Shown here piece by piece: positions 6,110 to 38,477 of a stretch of 64,000 nucleotides of DNA (positions are counted from its first letter, which is position 1; each line of letters begins with the position of its first letter). The notes below the pieces were generated by a model. The model did not search any database. It was not told the origin of the DNA and saw nothing but the letters and a program-made list of their open reading frames with translations. Source of the DNA: Escherichia phage vB_EcoP_PW8. The stretch lies in sequence record PQ362703.1. One strand, given 5' to 3'. The translations under genes and the position numbers were made by a program.

Positions 6110-6426
6110 AAACTATTCTAGTAGTTCATGATTCTACATTTACTGATGTAGATAAGATGATGCGTAATATTGATTATGTATCTCAGACAAGCCAGGCATT
6201 CAACGAAGAGTTTACTCTCTACTGTAATGCTAAATCACCGCTGGTTCCTATTCTTAAGGAATCAGGTCTACCCTTCTCTACAGAGAACTTCCCGGAAGAA
6301 CCAGACTATGTAATCTCATTTATCTATGACTTACATGATGGTTCTGAAATAAGTGAATTAGCTATGAACCAGTGGCGTAGTAAACGTCCTGTGTTCGCAT
6401 TTCAGGTACTTAAACCAAAGGATTAA
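6106..6426 (+). CDS. hypothetical protein
   Basis: 106-aa ORF, translationally coupled. Confidence 0.5.
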   Translation: MKTILVVHDSTFTDVDKMMRNIDYVSQTSQAFNEEFTLYCNAKSPLVPILKESGLPFSTENFPEEPDYVISFIYDLHDGSEISELAMNQWRSKRPVFAFQVLKPKD

Positions 6427-6428
6427 AT

Positions 6429-6779
6429 ATGAAAGAAATCTTAGTATTCACTACCAATGTACTTGGGCAGCATACTAATGCTGCTGCCAAATTAGCTTAT
6501 AAGAAACACGGTGCTCGCTGGGGTATGGCCTATGGTCATTATGGTAATAGCTTTGCCATTCCAGTAAGAGATGGCAATGGTAACCGAATTAAAGAGGGAG
6601 CTATTTATGGCTTCATCGAAGGCTTCATTGCCTATTCATCTTCTAATCCACAGTGGGATTTTAAAGTCATGAGTAATGACTATCTGGACCCATACCAGTT
6701 CATCAATGTAACAGGCAATGTACTGTTACCAGAAGCATGGCGTAAACACTTAGGTGATGCTTACAACTACTGGAGTTAA
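6429..6779 (+). CDS. hypothetical protein
   Basis: 116-aa ORF. Confidence 0.5.
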   Translation: MKEILVFTTNVLGQHTNAAAKLAYKKHGARWGMAYGHYGNSFAIPVRDGNGNRIKEGAIYGFIEGFIAYSSSNPQWDFKVMSNDYLDPYQFINVTGNVLLPEAWRKHLGDAYNYWS

Positions 6780-6781
6780 TA

Positions 6782-7042
6782 ATGACATATGAAGAACTGT
6801 GGTCTGCTCAAGTCAGAGCCAGAGCACTCACACGACACGATATCTATTATGCATTACAAAATGAATTAAAGAGTCGTACTAAGCTGGGTCACATATCTGG
6901 TTTTATTAAGATACCTATGACTAGCCTAGTCTGGCCTTATCAAAAGAAAAGTAATGAGTTTAACAGTAATGGTCTGCATGTACGTATCGACTACCTTGGT
7001 CAAGAGAACAGTATTCGTATTACCTTTTGGACTAAGCGTTAG
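6782..7042 (+). CDS. hypothetical protein
   Basis: 86-aa ORF. Confidence 0.5.
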   Translation: MTYEELWSAQVRARALTRHDIYYALQNELKSRTKLGHISGFIKIPMTSLVWPYQKKSNEFNSNGLHVRIDYLGQENSIRITFWTKR

Positions 7043-7047
7043 GTAAC

Positions 7048-7062
7048 AGCTGCTCCGCAGCT
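7048..7062 (+). promoter_or_regulatory. conserved hairpin AGCTGC-TCC-GCAGCT, candidate virion-RNAP early promoter (or terminator)
   Basis: 6-bp stem, TCC loop, 34 nt upstream of the RNA polymerase II subunit gene; followed by TTTTGG. Confidence 0.35.
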
Positions 7063-7095
7063 TTTGGTTATTAATCACATTTAGGAGAATAAGCG

Positions 7096-7911
7096 ATGTA
7101 CTCATCTATTGAACATCAGAAGCAGCTCGAAAAACTATTCAATAAAAATCAGCTCTTGCCTCGCATGAGGAAGGAATTCGAGGACTCCGAAGAAATTGAC
7201 TTTAAGGCTTTTGCTGCCTATTTAGAAATTGATTATAAGCTGCTCATTGATGCAATGGTGCAGATTGCCCTACATAAACGTGCTGACATCCAAACTATGA
7301 TTGGCTCTCTCATGAGTCATTCAGATGATGCTCAGTATATCGCTGACTGTCTGTATAAGATGGCAGAGAATGACTGCTTCAACTATGACCCTACCATCGA
7401 CAAGTTCGGTGTTATTTATGAGATTAGTGAAGATGTACAGATGGAACTGGAAGCATTCCAGTACCCATTGCCTATCGTAAGTGCTCCTAAGCCTGTTAAG
7501 TGTAACCGTGATACTGGTTACTACGAAAGCAGAGGTAGCATCATCCTCAAGAAGAACCATCATGAGATGGATGTCTGTCTTGACCATATCAACCGTATGA
7601 ACAATCAACGTCTCTGCATTAACTGGGACGTTGCTAACTATGTAAAAGACTCCCGTCCTAACATGGATAAACCCAAAGAGGGTGAAACCCGTCAGGACTA
7701 CGAGAAGCGTGTTAAAGCCTTTGAGAAGTACAGCCGTACAGCTAAGGAAGTAATGGAGCTAGTGACCAAAGAAGGTAATAACTTCTCCTTGGCTCATCGT
7801 TACGATAAGAGAGGACGCACTTACTGTTCCGGATATCATATATCCTATCAAGGCACTTCCTATAACAAAGCTGTTATTGAATTTGCAGACAAAGAACTAG
7901 TAGAGGACTAA
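7096..7911 (+). CDS. phage RNA polymerase II small subunit (N4 gp15-like; N-terminal part of a T7-like single-subunit RNAP)
   Basis: 271 aa, matching the size of N4 RNAPII small subunit (established knowledge); sits upstream of the ORF carrying the T7-RNAP catalytic motifs. Confidence 0.55.
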   Translation: MYSSIEHQKQLEKLFNKNQLLPRMRKEFEDSEEIDFKAFAAYLEIDYKLLIDAMVQIALHKRADIQTMIGSLMSHSDDAQYIADCLYKMAENDCFNYDPTIDKFGVIYEISEDVQMELEAFQYPLPIVSAPKPVKCNRDTGYYESRGSIILKKNHHEMDVCLDHINRMNNQRLCINWDVANYVKDSRPNMDKPKEGETRQDYEKRVKAFEKYSRTAKEVMELVTKEGNNFSLAHRYDKRGRTYCSGYHISYQGTSYNKAVIEFADKELVED

Positions 7912-8417
7912 TGAAACCAACTCAAGCAGAGTTGATGGAACTAATCGACTATGGCCCAGTGAATGGAACATTTCATTGGACTCATAGTCCATTGGTGTAC
8001 ATCAACGTAAGAGGTAAGGAGACTGGCTTATCAGGCTCCAGAGGACATCGAAAGATTGTCATTAATAAACAGGAATACAAGGCTCATCACGTAGCCTGGT
8101 GTATCATGACTGGTTCATGGCCTGAACAGGTGGATCATAATGATACAAACCGGGCCAACAACCGTTGGAATAACCTACGTGAGGCAACTCATGCACAGAA
8201 CATGTGCAATAGAACCATGAACAAGAATAACACTTCTGGATTTAAAGGTGTGCGTATTCGTAATGGTAAATACTTAGCCCAAATTCAAGTCAAAGGCACC
8301 AAAATAGCATTAGGTTCATTCACTGATCCAGTGGATGCTGCTAAGGCTTATGATGCTGCCGCAATTAAATACTTTGGTGAGTTCGCCAAAACAAACAAAG
8401 AACTCAATAACTATTAA
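7911..8417 (+). CDS. free-standing HNH homing endonuclease with AP2-like DNA-binding domain
   Basis: HHVAW...VDHNDTNRANNRWNNLREATHAQN HNH motif plus C-terminal AP2-like block ...AAKAYDAAAIKYFGEFAKTN; paralog of the 29675 ORF; inserted between the two RNAP subunit genes. Confidence 0.75.
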   Translation: MKPTQAELMELIDYGPVNGTFHWTHSPLVYINVRGKETGLSGSRGHRKIVINKQEYKAHHVAWCIMTGSWPEQVDHNDTNRANNRWNNLREATHAQNMCNRTMNKNNTSGFKGVRIRNGKYLAQIQVKGTKIALGSFTDPVDAAKAYDAAAIKYFGEFAKTNKELNNY

Positions 8418-8461
8418 TCCATTATGCGAGCCAAGTGGCTCAAGACGCTAAGGAACATAAA

Positions 8462-9679
8462 ATGCAACTGTTAACCGCTCGTGAATACCTGAAAGTAGAT
8501 ATCGCCAATTCTTATGGCTTGGATAAAAAGACATGGGATGAACGTATTGCTTGGTTTGATGAGAACGAAGCTAACCTGCTTAATCTGGTAGATGAAGCTG
8601 AAGATTCTGCTCTGTTCTTTGCTGGTGTAAACGCATGGAAAGATATGAAAGCAGGTAAACCTATTGGTTATGCCGTAGCTCTTGATGCTACATCATCTGG
8701 CTTGCAGTTACTGGCCTGCCTGACTGGTGACCGTTCTGCTGCTGAACTGTGTAACGTAGTTAACTACATGGGCGAGAATGGTAAGCCATTACGTCGTGAT
8801 GCTTATACAGTCATCTATCACAAGATGCTGGACATCCTTGGTGAAGCATCCCGTATTAAACGTAGTGACACTAAGCAGGCAGTTATGACTGCATTCTATG
8901 GTTCAGAAGCCAAGCCTAAAGAAGTATTCGGTGAAGGTATTCGTCTCAAGACTTTTGAGAATGTAATGGAAACTGTTGCTAGTGGTCCTTGGGCACTTAA
9001 CAAGTTCTTACTGCAATGTGGTAATCCAGATGCCAACCGTTATGTATGGGTACTTCCTGACAACTTCCACGCTGTCATTAAGGTCATGATTCCAGAAGTA
9101 CAGACTGTTAACTTCTTAGGTAAGCCATTTGACATCACTCGTATGGTTCAAGGTACTGAAGAGAAGACCCGTATGCTCTCTGCTAACATCACCCACTCTA
9201 TTGATGGAATGGTGGTACGTGAGATGCTGCGTCGTTGTAACTTCGACATGAACCAGATGAGCTATGTTAAGGCTCTTTGTGAGGGAACTGGTGAATACAC
9301 GGTAGGTTCTGATGATAATTATGAAATGGTTAATACACTATGGACTAGTTATGAGAAGTCTGGATTCCTGTCTACCCGTATCTTTGATTATCTGGACTCA
9401 GAAACCATTGCATTGGTAGATACAGATGTAATCTTAGCTATGCTCAATACTATGCCTAAGAAGCCATTCCCTGTAATGACTGTACATGACTGCTTCCGTT
9501 GCCATCCTAACTACGGTAATGACCTACGTCGTCAGTACAATCAGATTCTGTCCGACATTGCTAAGAGTGACCTACTGGGTTTCATCCTGTCTCAGGTACT
9601 AGGACAAGAGTTCTCTGCTGGTAAGCTGGATGACAGCCTCTGGCAGGACATTCTTGAAACAGACTATGCGTTGAGTTAA
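8462..9679 (+). CDS. phage RNA polymerase II large subunit (N4 gp16-like, T7-like RNAP catalytic part)
   Basis: T7-RNAP-like motif A LDATSSGLQ, motif B RSDTKQAVMTAFYGS, motif C VHDCF; track ORF 8435 (GTG) trimmed to ATG at Met10 with AAGGA RBS. Confidence 0.75.
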   Translation: MQLLTAREYLKVDIANSYGLDKKTWDERIAWFDENEANLLNLVDEAEDSALFFAGVNAWKDMKAGKPIGYAVALDATSSGLQLLACLTGDRSAAELCNVVNYMGENGKPLRRDAYTVIYHKMLDILGEASRIKRSDTKQAVMTAFYGSEAKPKEVFGEGIRLKTFENVMETVASGPWALNKFLLQCGNPDANRYVWVLPDNFHAVIKVMIPEVQTVNFLGKPFDITRMVQGTEEKTRMLSANITHSIDGMVVREMLRRCNFDMNQMSYVKALCEGTGEYTVGSDDNYEMVNTLWTSYEKSGFLSTRIFDYLDSETIALVDTDVILAMLNTMPKKPFPVMTVHDCFRCHPNYGNDLRRQYNQILSDIAKSDLLGFILSQVLGQEFSAGKLDDSLWQDILETDYALS

Positions 9680-9686
9680 TAAACTA

Positions 9687-9719
9687 GCCTCATTCCTTCG
9701 GGAGTGAGGCCTATTTTTT
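9687..9719 (+). terminator. rho-independent terminator (TTCG tetraloop)
   Basis: GCCTCATTCC-TTCG-GGAGTGAGGC followed by CTATTTTTTG. Confidence 0.7.
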
Positions 9720-9736
9720 GCTTGGAGGTAGCAACT

Positions 9737-9919
9737 ATGCTAATCAATTTTGAAGTAATCTTTCAGCTAATACTGATAGTTTTATCTGTACTGGTTCTGG
9801 CTACGATAATCCGTGCCCACAAATCTAAGTTTGCTTACTGCTACTATGGAGCATACTCACTTGGCTGTTTTGTAATAGCAGGATGGATAGCTTTTGCTAT
9901 CTACTGCGTAAACAACTAA
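9737..9919 (+). CDS. small two-TM membrane protein
   Basis: Track ORF 9704 starts inside the terminator; ATG at 9737 has GGAGGT RBS; hydrophobic. Confidence 0.45.
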   Translation: MLINFEVIFQLILIVLSVLVLATIIRAHKSKFAYCYYGAYSLGCFVIAGWIAFAIYCVNN

Positions 9920-9920
9920 C

Positions 9921-9946
9921 CCTCCTAACGGAGGATTTATTTTTTT
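9921..9946 (+). terminator. rho-independent terminator
   Basis: CCTCC-TAAC-GGAGG followed by ATTTATTTTTTT. Confidence 0.55.
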
Positions 9947-9993
9947 ACATGTCATGTATACTAATCCTGCTATTTACTTATGAGGAAATTGAT

Positions 9994-10827
9994 ATGCCAA
10001 CTTTGAAAGTAGGTTTTAACAAAACCACTAATGTTGTAACCGTACTGGATGCCGGTGGTTCTATCCCGGGTGGTTCCGTAGAAGTAGGAACCTTTGTACA
10101 CCCGGACGCCACTTACCCAGATAGCTTAGTTATCTTCCATGGTGTTCGTGATCTGCTGTATAAACGCTCTGCTAAAGATCCTAGTAAAGCAGGCTTCTGG
10201 CCTAACAATATCGTGGATATGCAGTCTATCTCTATTGATATGAAAGCTACCCCACGACTGACTATTGCTACTAAACTAGCTCGTGTAGTCTCCGCTATCG
10301 AAGGTGAAGACATCAACTGGCATGTTGATGTAGCGGGTGGCAAAGCACCATTTACTTATAAATGGCAGTTCAAAGCTGATACTGCTGGTGCAGCATTCGC
10401 TGATATTAGCTCCAGTACTAACCAATCAGCTGCTACTGCAACGCTGACCCTTAAAGGCGTAACAGCTGCTTCTGCTGGTACTTACAAAGTGATTGTTACT
10501 GATGCTAATGGAACCACGGTAGAAGATGAGTCACTGCTGGCTGTAGGCTACTACGAAGCAAGCTCTCTGGTAGCTACTCCTGCTTCACTGGATCTGTCTG
10601 TTGCTGCTGATATTACCGATGGCAAGACTGTAACCATTGTTGCTATGCCTGTTGGTTCTTCTTCTGGTGCTTTATCTATCAAGACTGCTCCAGAATCTGG
10701 TCGTGCTACAGCTACCATTGCTGGTAACGTACTGACAGTTAAGCCTGTGGCTGCTGGCGATGCTACTTCTGTAGTAGTTACCAACGGTACTGTCGATGTA
10801 ACTATCCCTATTACTGTTGCAGAATAA
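9994..10827 (+). CDS. Ig-like (Big_2-type) domain protein, candidate capsid decoration protein (N4 gp17-like position)
   Basis: Track ORF 9883 trimmed to ATG Met38 with GAGGAAA RBS; Ala/Thr/Val/Gly-rich beta-strand repeats such as ATATLTLKGVTAASAGTYKVIVTDANGTT; follows the RNAPII genes as N4 gp17 does. Confidence 0.55.
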   Translation: MPTLKVGFNKTTNVVTVLDAGGSIPGGSVEVGTFVHPDATYPDSLVIFHGVRDLLYKRSAKDPSKAGFWPNNIVDMQSISIDMKATPRLTIATKLARVVSAIEGEDINWHVDVAGGKAPFTYKWQFKADTAGAAFADISSSTNQSAATATLTLKGVTAASAGTYKVIVTDANGTTVEDESLLAVGYYEASSLVATPASLDLSVAADITDGKTVTIVAMPVGSSSGALSIKTAPESGRATATIAGNVLTVKPVAAGDATSVVVTNGTVDVTIPITVAE

Positions 10828-11667: not shown

Positions 11668-11874
11668 ATGGCAAGCATCGACTCCTTGACTGTATGTAAT
11701 TCACGTCAAGCTCGTAACTTTATTATCCGTGCCCTGAAAGCAGGTAACGTACCGTTCCTGACTTCATCACCAGGCATGGGTAAATCTGCAATTATTCGTT
11801 CTATTGCAGAAGAATTTGGTATGAAGCTGATAGACCATCGTCTGTCTACTTCTGCCCCGGAAGACCTTAACTAA
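11668..11874 (+). CDS. MoxR-like AAA+ ATPase, exon 1 (Walker A); ORF stop at 11872 lies inside a putative intron
   Basis: Walker A SSPGMGKS; ORF ends after 68 aa but the ATPase continues in ORF 12743..13588. Confidence 0.6.
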   Translation: MASIDSLTVCNSRQARNFIIRALKAGNVPFLTSSPGMGKSAIIRSIAEEFGMKLIDHRLSTSAPEDLN

Positions 11875-12745
11875 TAGGGCTTTGTGAGGGTGACCTCACA
11901 TCGAAAGCTATCTAAATGGGGAAACTCCTACTATTACAGGGAAACCATGATACACTCTGGTTTCCCAATAGAGGACAATCCCATGCTAAATATTAATGAA
12001 AGTTGGAAAGACATTGTTGGTTATGAAGGTTACTACGAAGTCTCTACGCATGGTCGTGTTAGAAATACCCATACAGGTATGATAAAGAACCAATGTGTAC
12101 AGACTAGCGGCAAGTATCTACAAGTTAGTTTGTGGAAAGGCAACAAAGAAAAAAGATGTTTAGTACATCGCTTAGTTGCTATAGCCTTCATTCCTAACCC
12201 CGAAGACAAGCCTCAAGTAAACCATTTAGACAAAAATGATAAGAACAACCATGTTCAAAATTTGGAATGGGTAACCATATCCGAGAATCATTTACATGCA
12301 TTTGCTAATGGTAGAAAAGGCTCCAAATCCCGACTAGGTGAAAAAACTAGTAAAGCCTCTCAGTATCGATATGTGTACTGGGATACCAAAAGAGCTGTTT
12401 GGAAAGCATCTATAAAGATAGACGGCAAAACAGTAAACATTGGTAGATTCAATACTGACCTAGAAGCAGCTTTAGCCGCTGATGAGGCAATTGATTCCTG
12501 GGGCTGGGATAGAATTAAAAACTTTCAATAATTAAATGCCTAACGACTATCGAAAACACGTAGTGATACGGAAGTGAGTAGAGTAGGGTGCAAGCCAATG
12601 GCACTCGAAAAGATAGCCACCCGGACAGGTAAAGCTGAGGGTGTTGATATAGTCTGGTCTGCGTAGTAATACGTAGCTGTATATGTCCAACTCGCATATA
12701 CGGGTAGAGCCTTGCAAACTCTACTGAACATAACGTAGTGGTTTG
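11869..12745 (+). mobile_element. putative group I intron carrying an HNH homing endonuclease ORF (boundaries approximate)
   Basis: Splits the ATPase between Walker A and Walker B; begins CTT|AACTAATAGGGC like the second intron; 3' part has stem-loops and blocks AACGACTATC, GAGTAGGG, GATATAGTCTGG shared with the intron at 33690. Confidence 0.55.
11983..12531 (+). CDS. intron-encoded HNH homing endonuclease
   Basis: WKDIVGYEGYYEVSTHGRV N-terminal module, HNH block QVNHLDKNDKNNHVQNLEWVT, C-terminal AP2-like block; track ORF 11884 trimmed to Met34 with AGAGGA RBS. Confidence 0.65.
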   Translation: MLNINESWKDIVGYEGYYEVSTHGRVRNTHTGMIKNQCVQTSGKYLQVSLWKGNKEKRCLVHRLVAIAFIPNPEDKPQVNHLDKNDKNNHVQNLEWVTISENHLHAFANGRKGSKSRLGEKTSKASQYRYVYWDTKRAVWKASIKIDGKTVNIGRFNTDLEAALAADEAIDSWGWDRIKNFQ

Positions 12746-13588
12746 CCATTCCGTAATGGTGACCGTGCAGAGTTTATTCCATTCGCTGACTTATTTCCCA
12801 TTGAGGGAGACGAAGTACCCGAAGGTTATAATGGCTGGCTCCTGTTCCTTGATGAGTTCAACTCAGCTAGGAAAGAAGTGGTAGCTGCTGCATACAAACT
12901 GATTCTCGACCGTATGACTGGTCAGAAAAAACTTCATCCCAATGTGATGATTGTTTGTGCTGGTAACAAAGCTACCGACCGTGCAATTGTTAACCCACTA
13001 GGTACTGCAATGCAGTCTCGTGTGGTTCACTTTGAAATGGAACTTAACTTCGACATCTTCGTTGAAGACGTAATGATTCCACAACAATGGGATGAACGTC
13101 TGGTTGCATTTCTACATGCTAACCCTGGCTATCTGCACGACTTCGACCCTGCTCATAAGAACAAAACATTCTGTTGTCCTCGTACCTGGGACTTTGTTAA
13201 CAAAGATCTCAAGAACCAACCAGAAGGTGCATTGCCTGACGAGGATTCCCTGTACTACAGTGGATTTGTTACACCAGGTAAGGCTGTAGAGTTTGTTCAG
13301 TTCACCCAGGTGTACAATCGTATCATTACGATCGAAAAGGTAGTCAAAGACCCATTGGGCTGTGCACTACCAGAAGATAACAACCTGTGCTGGGCTACCG
13401 TTAACCACTTGGCTAACAAAACTACTGAAGAGAACTTCGCTGATGTTCTTCAGTACATTGAACGCTTTAAAACGTTCACTCATAAGATTCTGTACTTCCG
13501 TACAGTAGGCAGAGCATTGCCAGAACTTCAGGCTACCCCTGAATGGCGTAAGGCTGCTGCTAATATCTCTCGTTACATTCACGGATAA
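12743..13588 (+). CDS. MoxR-like AAA+ ATPase, exon 2 (Walker B onward); true exon start about 12746
   Basis: Walker B LLFLDEFNSA; the track's TTG start is probably an artefact of the intron. Confidence 0.6.
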   Translation: MPFRNGDRAEFIPFADLFPIEGDEVPEGYNGWLLFLDEFNSARKEVVAAAYKLILDRMTGQKKLHPNVMIVCAGNKATDRAIVNPLGTAMQSRVVHFEMELNFDIFVEDVMIPQQWDERLVAFLHANPGYLHDFDPAHKNKTFCCPRTWDFVNKDLKNQPEGALPDEDSLYYSGFVTPGKAVEFVQFTQVYNRIITIEKVVKDPLGCALPEDNNLCWATVNHLANKTTEENFADVLQYIERFKTFTHKILYFRTVGRALPELQATPEWRKAAANISRYIHG

Positions 13589-23378: not shown

Positions 23379-23409
23379 CCCTCACTTGTAATAAAGTGAG
23401 GGTAATTTT
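23379..23409 (+). terminator. rho-independent terminator
   Basis: CCCTCACTT-GTAATA-AAGTGAGGG followed by TAATTTTG. Confidence 0.55.
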
Positions 23410-23425
23410 GAGGAGGAAATGTACT

Positions 23426-23821
23426 ATGAGTAAAGTATTCAGAAGTAATCGCAAAGCAACCGATGAAGACATCATTCGTATGAATGCTGTTGGGTTATCC
23501 CTCGCAACTATCGCTAAGACGTTGGGGGTTCACCCCACTACGGTTACTTTGCGATTGCGTTCTCTAAACATTGAACCAGCCGACACACGTCGGACGTTCA
23601 TGGAAAACGTATTACGTCCTTTACCAACCCATGTGGCTGATTGGCTGTCAGAACAAGTTGGTCCTGCTTATGAGATTCGCTCATATGTAAGAGACTTGAT
23701 TCTGGAAGCATATAATAATCGCCACCTTAACCAAGAGAGTGAGCATGACAAGTTCATCCGTTTGTACGCTGGCAAATACGGAAGCCTGGTTCCGGAAAGC
23801 AGTACCAAATCCGACGAGTAA
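23426..23821 (+). CDS. HTH DNA-binding protein
   Basis: Helix-turn-helix-like LSLATIAKTLGVHPTTV; ATG Met11 with AGGAGG RBS. Confidence 0.5.
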   Translation: MSKVFRSNRKATDEDIIRMNAVGLSLATIAKTLGVHPTTVTLRLRSLNIEPADTRRTFMENVLRPLPTHVADWLSEQVGPAYEIRSYVRDLILEAYNNRHLNQESEHDKFIRLYAGKYGSLVPESSTKSDE

Positions 23822-24206
23822 AAACATTAGTACCCAGATTGGTTGCCATCTGGAAGAAGTAGTAGAAATGTTAGATGAATTGACCCCATCCTGCGAGGAT
23901 AGTATGCAAGTGTTAGCCGATGCACAGGCTGCTTTGGGTAAATTATCACTGCTGATGAAAACAAACCACATGGCTATTTTCCCAGCGAATAGCAATCGCT
24001 TAGCCTTGCTGGATTCACTGGCAGACCAGATTGTTACAGCAACTGGCGTCGGTACTTTCCTTGGGATGAATGTCCCTGGAGCATTGGCTGAGGTCAATCG
24101 CTCAAACTATTCTAAGTTTGAAGATGGAGAACCTGTCTTCAATGAGAATATGAAAGTTATGAAAGGGAAAGACTATACTCCCCCGGATTTAACGCCGTAT
24201 ATCTGA
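23739..24206 (+). CDS. hypothetical protein, possibly MazG-like NTP pyrophosphohydrolase fold (start uncertain)
   Basis: Glu-rich helix IGCHLEEVVEMLDELT; overlaps the previous gene by 83 nt in another frame; alternative start 23868. Confidence 0.35.
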   Translation: MSMTSSSVCTLANTEAWFRKAVPNPTSKNISTQIGCHLEEVVEMLDELTPSCEDSMQVLADAQAALGKLSLLMKTNHMAIFPANSNRLALLDSLADQIVTATGVGTFLGMNVPGALAEVNRSNYSKFEDGEPVFNENMKVMKGKDYTPPDLTPYI

Positions 24207-29674: not shown

Positions 29675-30172
29675 ATGAAACAGAGGATTGCCCATGACAG
29701 GCTTTTACAGCTTGTTAGTTATGACCCTATTTCCGGAATTTTTACTCGTAGGAATACTGGGAAGGTATCCGGTTACCTAATGAAGAGTGGCTACACTCAG
29801 CTCCGTGTGGATAGCGTGTTGTACTATGGGCATATCCTTGCATGGTTCTATGTGCATGGCGTATGGCCTACGGATAGGATTGACCATAAGGACAATATAC
29901 GCCATCACAACTGGATAGATAACCTCAGAGAAGCGACCCACAAGCAGAATAACCAGAGTGCTGTTTTATCTAAAACAAACACATCTGGATTTAAGGGGGT
30001 ATCCTTTTCAAAGAATTTAGGTAAATACAGAGCAACTATTTGGGTTAACAGCAAACCAATTACATTAGGTTTCACAGATGACCCAAGAGAAGCTGCTGTT
30101 CTCTATGATGAAGCTGCTATAACTCATTATGGTGAGTTTGCTAAAACTAATAAGCAATTGGGACTGTTATGA
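29675..30172 (+). CDS. free-standing HNH homing endonuclease with AP2-like domain
   Basis: HILAW...IDHKDNIRHHNWIDNLREATHKQN and C-terminal AP2-like block; paralog of ORF 7911. Confidence 0.75.
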   Translation: MKQRIAHDRLLQLVSYDPISGIFTRRNTGKVSGYLMKSGYTQLRVDSVLYYGHILAWFYVHGVWPTDRIDHKDNIRHHNWIDNLREATHKQNNQSAVLSKTNTSGFKGVSFSKNLGKYRATIWVNSKPITLGFTDDPREAAVLYDEAAITHYGEFAKTNKQLGLL

Positions 30173-33355: not shown

Positions 33356-33691
33356 ATGACCGAAGTAATTCCCAATGATATGAACACTCAGCTAATCCTG
33401 ATTGCAGGATTCTCAGCGAGTGGTAAATCAGCATCACTGCGTAACATCCGGAACCAGGAACGCTGGCTCTATCTGAATACTGAAGCAGGTAAACGTCTGC
33501 CTTTCCGTAACAAATTCAATACCTACAACATTGAAGACCCATACCAGATTTGGGAAGCATTTGATGTTGCATCTCCTGGTGGAGAAATGGCAGATGATGT
33601 TGATGGTATCATTATTGACTCAGCAACCTTTATGATGGACATGCTGGAATCTCAGTATGTATTACCCTCTGCAAACACGCAAAAGGCTTAA
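33356..33691 (+). CDS. Sak4-like (AAA_24-type) ATPase, exon 1; ORF stop lies inside a putative intron
   Basis: Walker A GFSASGKS and Walker B GIIIDSATF; reading frame resumes after the HEG in ORF 34461. Confidence 0.5.
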   Translation: MTEVIPNDMNTQLILIAGFSASGKSASLRNIRNQERWLYLNTEAGKRLPFRNKFNTYNIEDPYQIWEAFDVASPGGEMADDVDGIIIDSATFMMDMLESQYVLPSANTQKA

Positions 33692-34488
33692 CTACTAAGG
33701 CCCGTTAGTCAGTAATGATTAACGATAACTGATTGAATTCAGGGAAACCCCTAACGTAAAGACGAGGGCAATCCTGAGCCAAGACTTAATCTTTCTCCGG
33801 TTTTTATTAACGGAGTTACAAACATGAGTAAGAAAAGATTCGGTAATGAATTACATCCTCTGTATTACACATGGTTAACCATTAAACAGAGATGCGATAA
33901 CCCTAAGCACGCTAGTTACAAAAACTATGGGGCTAGGGGGATAACTAGAGCAGAAGAGTTCTCTGACTTCAAAGTGTTTGCTGCCTATCTAGAATCATTA
34001 GATGGTTACGCAGACAGGGAGAGACTGGGTCTTACTTTAGATAGAATAGATGGTTCACTTGGCTATGTGCCAGGAAATCTGAGATGGGCAACTAGAACAA
34101 CTCAGGCCATTAATTCCAGAAAAAGAAGAACCAGTAAAGCTACCTACTTAGGTATAGGTTTAAACACCACTAAGAAAAAATGGTCAGCAAGAATCTGCAA
34201 TGGTAATGAAAGAATCTTTGTAGGTAATTTTGATTCCGAGATTGAAGCTCTGGAAGCTAGAAATGCCTACATTATTGAGCATGGATTACCTCATGCCATT
34301 CAAAAGATTAAGTAAGGTGCAACGACTATCCAGTAATGGAGTAGGGCAGAAGCTAATGCTGCTCGAAGCGGTCAGCATCCTATCGTAATTAACGAGGATG
34401 AAGATATAGTCTGGACTGCATGGAAACATGCAGATGCAGGTAATGCTGCTGGGAGTGTAGTTGCGTACGCTCTTGAACGTATCGTGGG
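33690..34488 (+). mobile_element. putative group I intron carrying a homing-endonuclease-like ORF (boundaries approximate)
   Basis: Begins CTT|AACTACTAAGGCC; shares blocks AACGACTATC, GGAGTAGGG, GATATAGTCTGG and 3' end ...ATCGTG with the intron at 11869. Confidence 0.5.
33824..34315 (+). CDS. intron-encoded homing-endonuclease-like protein (degenerate HNH_3 plus AP2-like domain)
   Basis: RIDGSLGYVPGNLRWATRTTQ resembles HNH_3 core; C-terminal AP2-like block YLGIGLNTTKKKWSARI...FDSEIEALEARNAYI. Confidence 0.55.
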   Translation: MSKKRFGNELHPLYYTWLTIKQRCDNPKHASYKNYGARGITRAEEFSDFKVFAAYLESLDGYADRERLGLTLDRIDGSLGYVPGNLRWATRTTQAINSRKRRTSKATYLGIGLNTTKKKWSARICNGNERIFVGNFDSEIEALEARNAYIIEHGLPHAIQKIK

Positions 34489-34904
34489 GGGATTTTGCAC
34501 AGTTCTTTAAGATACTGCTGCAACAGAAAGTCGTTAAGTTTGGTAAGCCAGTAATCATTACTGCTCATGCTAAAGACGAACTGGATGAAGCTGCTGGTGT
34601 GATGAAAACATTCATCCCAGTGAAAGGTTCCCTTAAGAATAACGGACTTGAAGCCTACTTCTCTACAGTGGTTTACGCAGAACGTGTAGACATCAAAGAA
34701 CTGGAGAAGTACGGAAACAAGATGTTAGAAATTACGGAAGAAGAACGTGACTTAGGATATAAGCACGTATTCCAGACCCGTCCAACCAAGAAGTCTGTTG
34801 GTAAACGACTTCGTTCCCCTATGGGTATGTTCGATAAGTCCGAGACTTACATTGATAACGATGCCCAGAAACTATTAGACCATCTGGCTGAATACTACGC
34901 TTAA
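34461..34904 (+). CDS. Sak4-like ATPase, exon 2 (true exon start about 34485-34491)
   Basis: C-terminal half of a ~245-aa AAA_24-like protein; the track's TTG start is probably an artefact of the intron. Confidence 0.5.
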   Translation: MRTLLNVSWGDFAQFFKILLQQKVVKFGKPVIITAHAKDELDEAAGVMKTFIPVKGSLKNNGLEAYFSTVVYAERVDIKELEKYGNKMLEITEEERDLGYKHVFQTRPTKKSVGKRLRSPMGMFDKSETYIDNDAQKLLDHLAEYYA

Positions 34905-38322: not shown

Positions 38323-38398
38323 TACCCGGTAGGCTTAGTGGTAAAGCCCCACTAGTAAACCAGCTAGGACGCAGGTTCGAATCCTGTCCGGGTAACCA
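38323..38398 (+). tRNA. tRNA-like gene with encoded CCA; anticodon arm atypical
   Basis: Acceptor TACCCGG/CCGGGTA, D arm GGCT-TAGTGGTAA-AGCC, T arm GCAGG-TTCGAAT-CCTGT, 3' ACCA; anticodon region folds only as a 4-bp stem with an 8-nt loop. Confidence 0.45.
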
Positions 38399-38403
38399 TT
38401 TAT

Positions 38404-38477
38404 GCCCACTTAGCTTAGACGGGGAAAGCAACCGACTAATAATCGGAAGGTCACTGGTTCAAATCCAGTAGTGGGTA
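38404..38477 (+). tRNA. tRNA gene, apparent anticodon AAU (unusual; assignment uncertain)
   Basis: Acceptor GCCCACT/AGTGGGT, D arm GCTT-AGACGGGGA-AAGC, anticodon stem (A)CCGA/TCGG(A) with loop CTAATAA, T arm ACTGG-TTCAAAT-CCAGT. Confidence 0.5.

Follow-up and report, generated by a model that had tools for sequence, protein, structure and literature searches.

An HNH_3-AP2 endonuclease gene in the RNA polymerase II operon of a Gamaleyavirus occupies a junction apparently contested by four nuclease lineages

The window, by which we mean the whole 64,000-nt stretch of phage DNA analysed, is a G7C-like N4-type podophage genome of the genus Gamaleyavirus (Schitoviridae). Its region 6400-10000 is matched by 58 GenBank phage records, nearly all from Gamaleyavirus, with 88-95% identity. 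In this region, a free-standing endonuclease gene, ORF 7911, separates the two genes of the N4-type RNA polymerase II (RNAPII):

7048..7062, + strand: terminator-like hairpin ahead of gp15 that bounds the gp15-HEG-gp16 transcription unit on the left (consensus scan, pattern match only)
7096..7911, + strand: gp15, small subunit of N4-type RNA polymerase II, 271 aa (PDB 6DT7_A, E 2e-118; PHROG 2166)
7911..8417, + strand: free-standing HNH_3-AP2 endonuclease gene, 168 aa (inserted cassette 7912-8417)
8428..8441, + strand: short hairpin, GAGCC-AAGT-GGCTC, behind the endonuclease stop and ahead of the gp16 ribosome binding site (RNA fold)
8462..9679, + strand: gp16, large catalytic subunit of RNA polymerase II with motifs A/B/C, 405 aa (PDB 6DT7_B, E 5e-194; start from relatives)
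9687..9710, + strand: strong terminator-like hairpin with T-run that bounds the gp15-HEG-gp16 unit on the right (consensus scan)

Both neighbours are homologues of the solved N4 RNAPII heterodimer (PDB 6DT7), gp15 of chain A and gp16 of chain B, so the position between two RNAPII subunit genes given in a preliminary description of this DNA holds. The same description had placed all polymerase motifs in the downstream subunit. Motifs A (DATSSGLQ), B (RSDTKQAVMTAFYGS), and C (VHDCF), which we assign by comparison with the T7 RNAP motifs, are indeed all read in the gp16 translation, to which the Pfam RNA_pol match is likewise confined. gp16 starts at ATG 8462 behind a Shine-Dalgarno sequence (AAGGA, 8451-8455), and the relatives all align and are annotated from there; GTG 8435, proposed by the ORF finder, is an in-frame artefact. 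The endonuclease ORF begins with ATG and encodes 168 aa, its coordinates including the stop codon. As had been noted, its start overlaps the upstream stop: A7911 is common to the ATG and to the gp15 TAA (7909-7911), forming TAATG. The ORF lies outside any intron or intein, between the gp15 stop and the gp16 start, and Rfam returns no intron match in 7000-9700 either at gathering thresholds or in a permissive search.

The hairpin ahead of the gp16 ribosome binding site also occurs in relatives (window 8418-8461; L002 2016-2071; L053 3508-3551), while the alleles classed below as type C are without it. Its stems differ by junction type (GAGCC/GGCTC, GGCTCTCCA/TGGGGAGCC, GGGC/GCCC), some variants have a UCC...GGA pairing that reaches the Shine-Dalgarno sequence, and z-scores range from -1.7 to -3.5. 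Its resemblance to the N4 P2 sequence prompted a search for an N4 virion-RNAP-type promoter; this idea was dropped because the motif AATCCAWWAWGC ahead of the hairpin occurs once exactly and, with one mismatch allowed, at about chance frequency. Further downstream, gp16 shows two alleles over ~200 nt (~9242-9460), with 43-70% versus 77-98% identity to the window. This tract lies just upstream of window position 9489/9494, the insertion point of a ~970-nt insertion in Moonfish (L014 2736-3703) that carries an HNH_3-AP2 ORF near polymerase motif C, and is possibly a further variable tract linked to an endonuclease. Elsewhere in the window, a pair of adjacent tRNA genes is found at 38323-38477.

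The ORF 7911 protein combines two domains:

8076..8204, + strand: HNH (beta-beta-alpha-metal) catalytic motif, residues 56-98, with D75-H76, N88, and N97
8235..8384, + strand: AP2-type DNA-binding domain, residues 109-158 (phmmer, model, superposition)

Both had been recognised by eye, and profile searches had been suggested for both. For the HNH motif, the profile agrees, as Pfam HNH_3 (PF13392) matches residues 56-98 with 52.4 bits (E 4e-14; cut-off 24.8 bits); the protein as a whole matches PHROG 99 with E 1e-61. D75, H76, N88, and N97 are invariant across 55 homologues and align to the I-HmuI motif, to which phmmer also finds a weak match over the HNH motif among PDB sequences. By the known roles of these positions in I-HmuI, they comprise the catalytic histidine acting as general base, the metal-binding Asp/Asn, and the structural asparagine. 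The Pfam AP2 profile, which is built mostly on plant sequences, does not carry its half of the check: its match to residues 109-156 scores 18.2 bits, under the gathering score of 33.3 bits, and AP2 was therefore pursued by other routes. A phmmer search against all PDB sequences returns the plant AP2 domains of WRI1 (2e-8), TEM1 (1e-4), and ERF1 (2e-3), and precomputed AP2 and HNH_3 matches exist for most of 165 database homologues. In the AlphaFold model (55 homologues; pLDDT 94.1, pTM 0.83), the N-terminal part adopts a beta-beta-alpha-metal fold, and the C-terminus forms a three-stranded antiparallel sheet packed on one long helix. Foldseek superposes this C-terminal domain on ERF1 (TM 0.76, 1.1 A) and TEM1 (1.0 A), with 1.0-1.2 A overall. 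By phmmer, homologue annotations, and model superposition, the C-terminal domain missed by Pfam is confirmed as predicted AP2, in agreement with the first reading.

The insertion is compact in its anatomy. The empty allele reads ...GATTAA|TCATACAATAAGCAGG..., and the window reads ...GACTAA|TG...TATTAA|TCCATTATGCGAG.... The cassette 7912-8417 is thereby essentially a bare ORF that directly follows the gp15 TAA and closes with its own TAA, followed by TCCAT. Its expression signal resides in the upstream gene:

7903..7907, + strand: GAGGA Shine-Dalgarno sequence for the endonuclease, within the last gp15 codons (allele comparison)

GAGGA stands 4 nt before the nuclease ATG in all nuclease-bearing alleles (types A-D in the aligned panel), and GAAGA or GATGA takes its place in all nuclease-free alleles of the panel. 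A consensus scan detects no sigma-70-like site within the gp15-HEG-gp16 unit. Since the unit holds no internal promoter-like site and is flanked by terminator-like hairpins, the gene seems to lack a promoter of its own, to be transcribed along with the polymerase subunits, and to be coupled to gp15 in translation.

That ORF 7911-8417 is a real coding gene, far beyond chance, is confirmed by its conservation. In the window, PD205, Mimir124, and an IMG/VR contig, which carry the four closest copies, the gene encodes 168 aa each time. Two sub-lineages differ by dS ~0.8 and dN ~0.045, and the resulting dN/dS of 0.05 points to strong purifying selection rather than decay; among endonuclease copies, the ratio ranges from 0.05 to 0.11 with dS up to 0.8.

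Among 50,697 phage records, the gene is found at the DNA level in PD205 (96%) and Mimir124 (86%) only, that is, in 2 of the 58 related GenBank records. Both encode the protein at the identical position, PD205 as a 97% identical "hypothetical protein" (UVK80481.1) and Mimir124 as a 90% identical "HNH endonuclease" (XLZ23656.1). The next best protein matches (<=45% identity) are orthologues of another paralogue in the window, ORF 29675, and outside the genus, the DNA search yields only a 96-nt patch in Pectobacterium phages whose context is uninformative. Of eight IMG/VR relatives, one carries it, again at this site. In metagenomes, it is present in at least 17 contigs of up to ~70 kb, including variants at 80% and 75% identity, always at this site and each time flanked by gp15 (272 aa) and an RNA_pol gene (405 aa). 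One of these data sets also offers an additional gene: in the metagenomic Gamaleyavirus-like contig L053, a further HNH_3-AP2 ORF of 158 aa (1683-2159) lies directly upstream of gp15, besides the copy between gp15 and gp16.

Across the 58 records, the distance from gp15 start to gp16 end varies from ~2,090 to ~3,590 nt. The annotation of these regions, together with pairwise comparisons of what is inserted at the junction, distinguishes the following junction types:

Empty: 56-nt spacer (EC1-UPM, phi G17)
X: 53-aa ORF (ECBP1 and many others)
Y: 80-aa ORF (KKP 3715, E20, IME11, 24-32N)
A: HNH_3-AP2 gene of ORF 7911 (window, PD205, Mimir124)
B: second HNH_3-AP2 gene, ~30% identical (UE-M6, UE-S5a, UE-M3)
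C: 193-aa Cys-rich endonuclease VII-like protein with NUMOD1 (G7C, Bas96, PGN829.1, Moonfish, ST4)
D: 204-aa relative of C, 32% identical (pSb-1, HK2)

The synteny comparison thus bears out that the gene is not universal at its position: besides its presence in 2 of 58 records, the junction is empty in EC1-UPM and phi G17 and filled by other endonucleases in G7C, pSb-1, and UE-M6. Types B and D share the insertion point of type A, and type C begins one base later and replaces the spacer; all four nuclease lineages are inserted at a single point or no more than 1-2 bases from it. The gene is sporadic, and from this survey of junction types the gp15/gp16 junction is, at the level of sequence, a hotspot contested by four nuclease lineages. 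The intermediate junctions of ECBP1, 24-32N, IME11, E20, and KKP3715 were considered as decayed endonuclease remnants and rejected as such: the small ORFs of types X and Y belong to PHROG 15352 and 5444 and have no kinship to nucleases by BLASTP, Pfam, or PHROG.

The nuclease lineages are accompanied by changes in the upstream polymerase gene:

7786..7911, + strand: divergent 3' segment of gp15 linked to the endonuclease (identity profile; synonymous differences)

Most 60-nt windows of gp15 are at least 93% identical to relatives. In contrast, the last ~120 nt are 56-72% identical to every other junction type and 88-96% identical within type A. Against endonuclease-free alleles, pS is about 1 (saturated) over the last 39 gp15 codons, compared with 0.15-0.30 over codons 1-230. 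The protein changes only slightly (HKYDKRGRTYACGYHIN to HRYDKRGRTYCSGYHIS, with one codon lost). Alleles of this segment are specific to the junction type, except that the nuclease-free types share one (82-99% identity). Such divergence is the signature to be expected if a foreign tract was co-converted, if the target region has become immune to cleavage, or if both apply, and we propose that the recognition site of the endonuclease lies within the segment equivalent to window 7786-7911; ordinary mosaic recombination could also produce such divergence. E20 has no junction endonuclease, yet its gp15 3' end (L011 1000-1119) is 84-90% identical to type C (G7C/Bas96) and may be the footprint of a type C endonuclease that was lost or replaced.

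A more distant copy of the gene relates to its mobility. In a 153-kb contig binned with a Mesorhizobium MAG (L057), a gp15 homologue is immediately followed by a copy of 63% identity, and four small ORFs separate this copy from the RNA_pol gene. The flanking genes of this contig are less similar to the window, with 46% identity for gp15 and 48% for gp16. Within the genus, the pattern is opposite, as the nuclease is 75-91% and the flanks are 88-96% identical. That the nuclease is more conserved than its essential neighbours over such a distance, and at the same site, indicates horizontal transfer of the nuclease to the homologous site.

We consider it likely that ORF 7911-8417 is an active, promoterless, translationally coupled, free-standing HNH_3-AP2 homing endonuclease gene in the gp15-gp16 junction. 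It would be transcribed together with gp15 and gp16 without a promoter of its own, and its translation would be coupled to that of gp15 via the TAATG overlap and the GAGGA in the last gp15 codons. During mixed infection, the protein would bind DNA through its N-terminal sheet and the C-terminal AP2 domain and, in a co-infecting relative, would nick or cut the allele without endonuclease, close to the gp15 3' end or the junction. Repair off the carrier genome by recombination would then copy the gene, together with ~120 nt of gp15 flank, into the recipient, while the carrier itself would be protected by the different sequence of its own gp15 3' end and junction. Homing in this sense, that is, site-specific cleavage followed by gene conversion by the ORF 7911 protein, is what we infer; our literature search found no published cleavage or super-Mendelian inheritance for this protein or close relatives.

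It is quite unlikely that the protein is instead a domesticated nuclease or DNA-binding protein, kept for its service to the phage and not as a selfish element that spreads itself. It might then, for example, regulate middle transcription or gp16 expression through its AP2 domain, or act as a nuclease directed against competing phages or host DNA. Such a role would fit the constant association with the RNAPII operon, which extends to the distant phage, and the predicted co-expression with the polymerase subunits, and co-option of domains derived from phage homing endonuclease genes is known (PMC10448857). However, ~95% of the close relatives grow without the gene, and the site is elsewhere empty or taken by unrelated nucleases. 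The strong purifying selection on ORF 7911, which would also suit domestication, is equally expected of an actively homing element.

Less probable still is that the endonuclease is carried along passively at a recombination hotspot. Ordinary recombination in conserved flanks would then exchange the cassettes, and the nuclease would have ceased to drive its own spread here or would never have done so. The junction may recombine frequently in general, whether or not a nuclease acts there, because modules X (53 aa) and Y (80 aa), which encode no nucleases, occur at the same point in many genomes, and the boundaries are common to all cassettes. Four independent nuclease lineages at a single junction are, however, far above neutral expectation, and passive exchange accounts poorly for the invariant catalytic residues and for the stronger conservation of the gene than of its flanks between distant phages. 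Moreover, the possession of an own diverged flank allele by each nuclease type is the classic signature of co-conversion or immunity. A decaying remnant or mis-called ORF without function, to which the sub-threshold Pfam AP2 score and the frequent degeneration of homing endonuclease genes once fixed might point, is extremely improbable given the full-length 168 aa in every genome examined, a dN/dS of 0.05, a model pLDDT of 94, and entirely intact catalytic residues.

A broader reading extends the preferred interpretation of ORF 7911 as a homing endonuclease gene to the history of the polymerase. In this scenario, the gp15/gp16 junction would be an ancient homing site, at which endonuclease lineages have settled and replaced one another many times in N4-like phages of very different hosts, and the two-subunit RNAPII would preserve, as a scar, the break that an early endonuclease insertion made in a T7-like single-subunit gene ("genes in pieces"). 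We hold this to be doubtful. The hypothesis of a split polymerase is already in print, as Amgarten et al. (2017) proposed that an endonuclease insertion had split an ancestral T7-like polymerase (PMC5418858). If it were true, the window and its relatives would be living intermediates, and the idea would become experimentally testable.

ORF 7911 is accompanied in the window by other genes of its kind:

29675..30172, + strand: paralogous HNH_3-AP2 endonuclease gene upstream of an exonuclease gene (41% identity; Pfam)

The paralogy between ORF 7911 and ORF 29675-30172 had been suspected beforehand and is substantiated by 41% identity (E 7e-39) and by the same two domains. The suggested total of at least four genes of the homing endonuclease type is likewise reached with those at 7911, 11884, 29675, and 33824; the genes at 11884 and 33824 sit in insertions with sub-threshold group I intron matches. 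At gathering thresholds, Rfam reports no intron across the 64,000-nt window, and its two intron-like matches appear only in the permissive search. The site of ORF 29675 is polymorphic in the genus, as the gene is present in ~12 records and elsewhere replaced by a different HNH gene or absent, and nucleases are also seen at the equivalent position in N4-like phages of Pseudomonas and Burkholderia. An insertion of ~866 nt (11875-12742), shared only by pSb-1 among the 58 related records, splits an AAA ATPase gene (11668-11874 and 12743-13588). It contains a NUMOD4-HNH_3-AP2 endonuclease (ORF 11884-12531) and a full-length group I intron match at 12387-12676 (25.6 bits, below the gathering score of 50). 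An ATPase-gene insertion of similar kind is described for the Pseudomonas N4-like phages ZC03 and ZC08 (PMC5418858). The second intron-like insertion (33692-34460) splits an AAA_24-type gene (33356-33691 and 34461-34904). There, Intron_gpI matches at 34206-34433 (43.9 bits, E 6.6e-8) and at 33739-33844 (30.1 bits) are both below the gathering score, and ORF 33824-34315 (163 aa) appears by eye to be a degenerate HNH-AP2 protein, with DRID where DH is expected and no Pfam match. ORFs 23396-24206, considered as a further endonuclease, proved to be a PHROG 6377 protein and a MazG-like pyrophosphohydrolase.

ORF 7911 is an ordinary case because close relatives are known from the literature to have endonuclease insertions at the gp15/gp16 junction. 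By itself it is of little consequence: selfish genes of this type are well known, and the site has been noted before. For its HNH-AP2 lineage at this junction, and for a four-lineage hotspot with lineage-specific flank alleles, we found no description in the literature. The contribution beyond PMC5418858 is consequently the multi-lineage hotspot together with the tracking of one nuclease lineage across genera. The comparative picture, in which one point in an essential operon receives four nuclease lineages and two small cassettes with their own flank alleles, is modestly useful. It offers a natural system for homing endonuclease competition, for co-conversion of essential-gene sequence, and for the origin and upkeep of split enzymes. 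Further, the clustering of Gamaleyavirus recombination breakpoints at the gp15/gp16 junction is relevant to the engineering and typing of therapeutic-candidate coliphages. The homing model predicts a target in the segment equivalent to window 7786-7911, coupled translation, and nuclease-dependent over-inheritance.

Several known systems share parts of this arrangement. HNH-AP2 homing endonucleases are referred to as a recognised family in PMC10448857, where Magnani et al. (2004) is cited. Like ORF 7911, members of the family (PHROG 99; "IPA-HNH" of ICP1) have an N-terminal HNH and a C-terminal AP2 domain and are widespread and sporadic in phages. In the ICP1 genes, however, the HNH is too divergent for Pfam HNH_3, whereas ORF 7911 matches HNH_3 directly. 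I-HmuI, the HNH nicking endonuclease of SPO1 (PDB 1U3E), differs in being intron-encoded and in its helical/HTH C-terminal domains, and shares 20% identity. The Mimir124 and PD205 records of the orthologue carry no comment on mobility or on the AP2 domain.

Within the genus, the "G7C-type" organisation of Amgarten et al. (2017) already features an endonuclease between RNAP1 and RNAP2 (PMC5418858). G7C ORF15.1 (HQ259105) occupies the same junction between the same genes and, like ORF 7911, starts at the gp15 stop. In contrast to ORF 7911, it encodes an unrelated protein of 193 aa with a Cys-rich endonuclease VII-like N-terminus and NUMOD1 (PHROG 1035) and replaces the whole spacer, and BLASTP finds no match between the two proteins. 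For G7C-like phages, Babenko et al. further describe a spliced intron in gene 16 and an endonuclease-bearing insertion that makes DNA polymerase gene 39 two subunits (bioRxiv 10.1101/542787).

By analogy, the closest functional analogue of ORF 7911 is mobE of T4, likewise a free-standing HNH-family gene between two subunit genes of an essential enzyme. In T4, mobE is located between nrdA and nrdB. The two genes differ in that mobE resides in a ribonucleotide reductase operon and ORF 7911 in that of RNA polymerase II, and in that the DNA-binding module of ORF 7911 is AP2; their likeness refers to the HNH-family catalytic motif and to gene position, not to a sequence alignment. The promoterless mobE is co-transcribed with the upstream nrdA, and its product nicks nrdB of the endonuclease-free T2, upon which flanking markers are co-converted (PMC2790892; PMC2988022).
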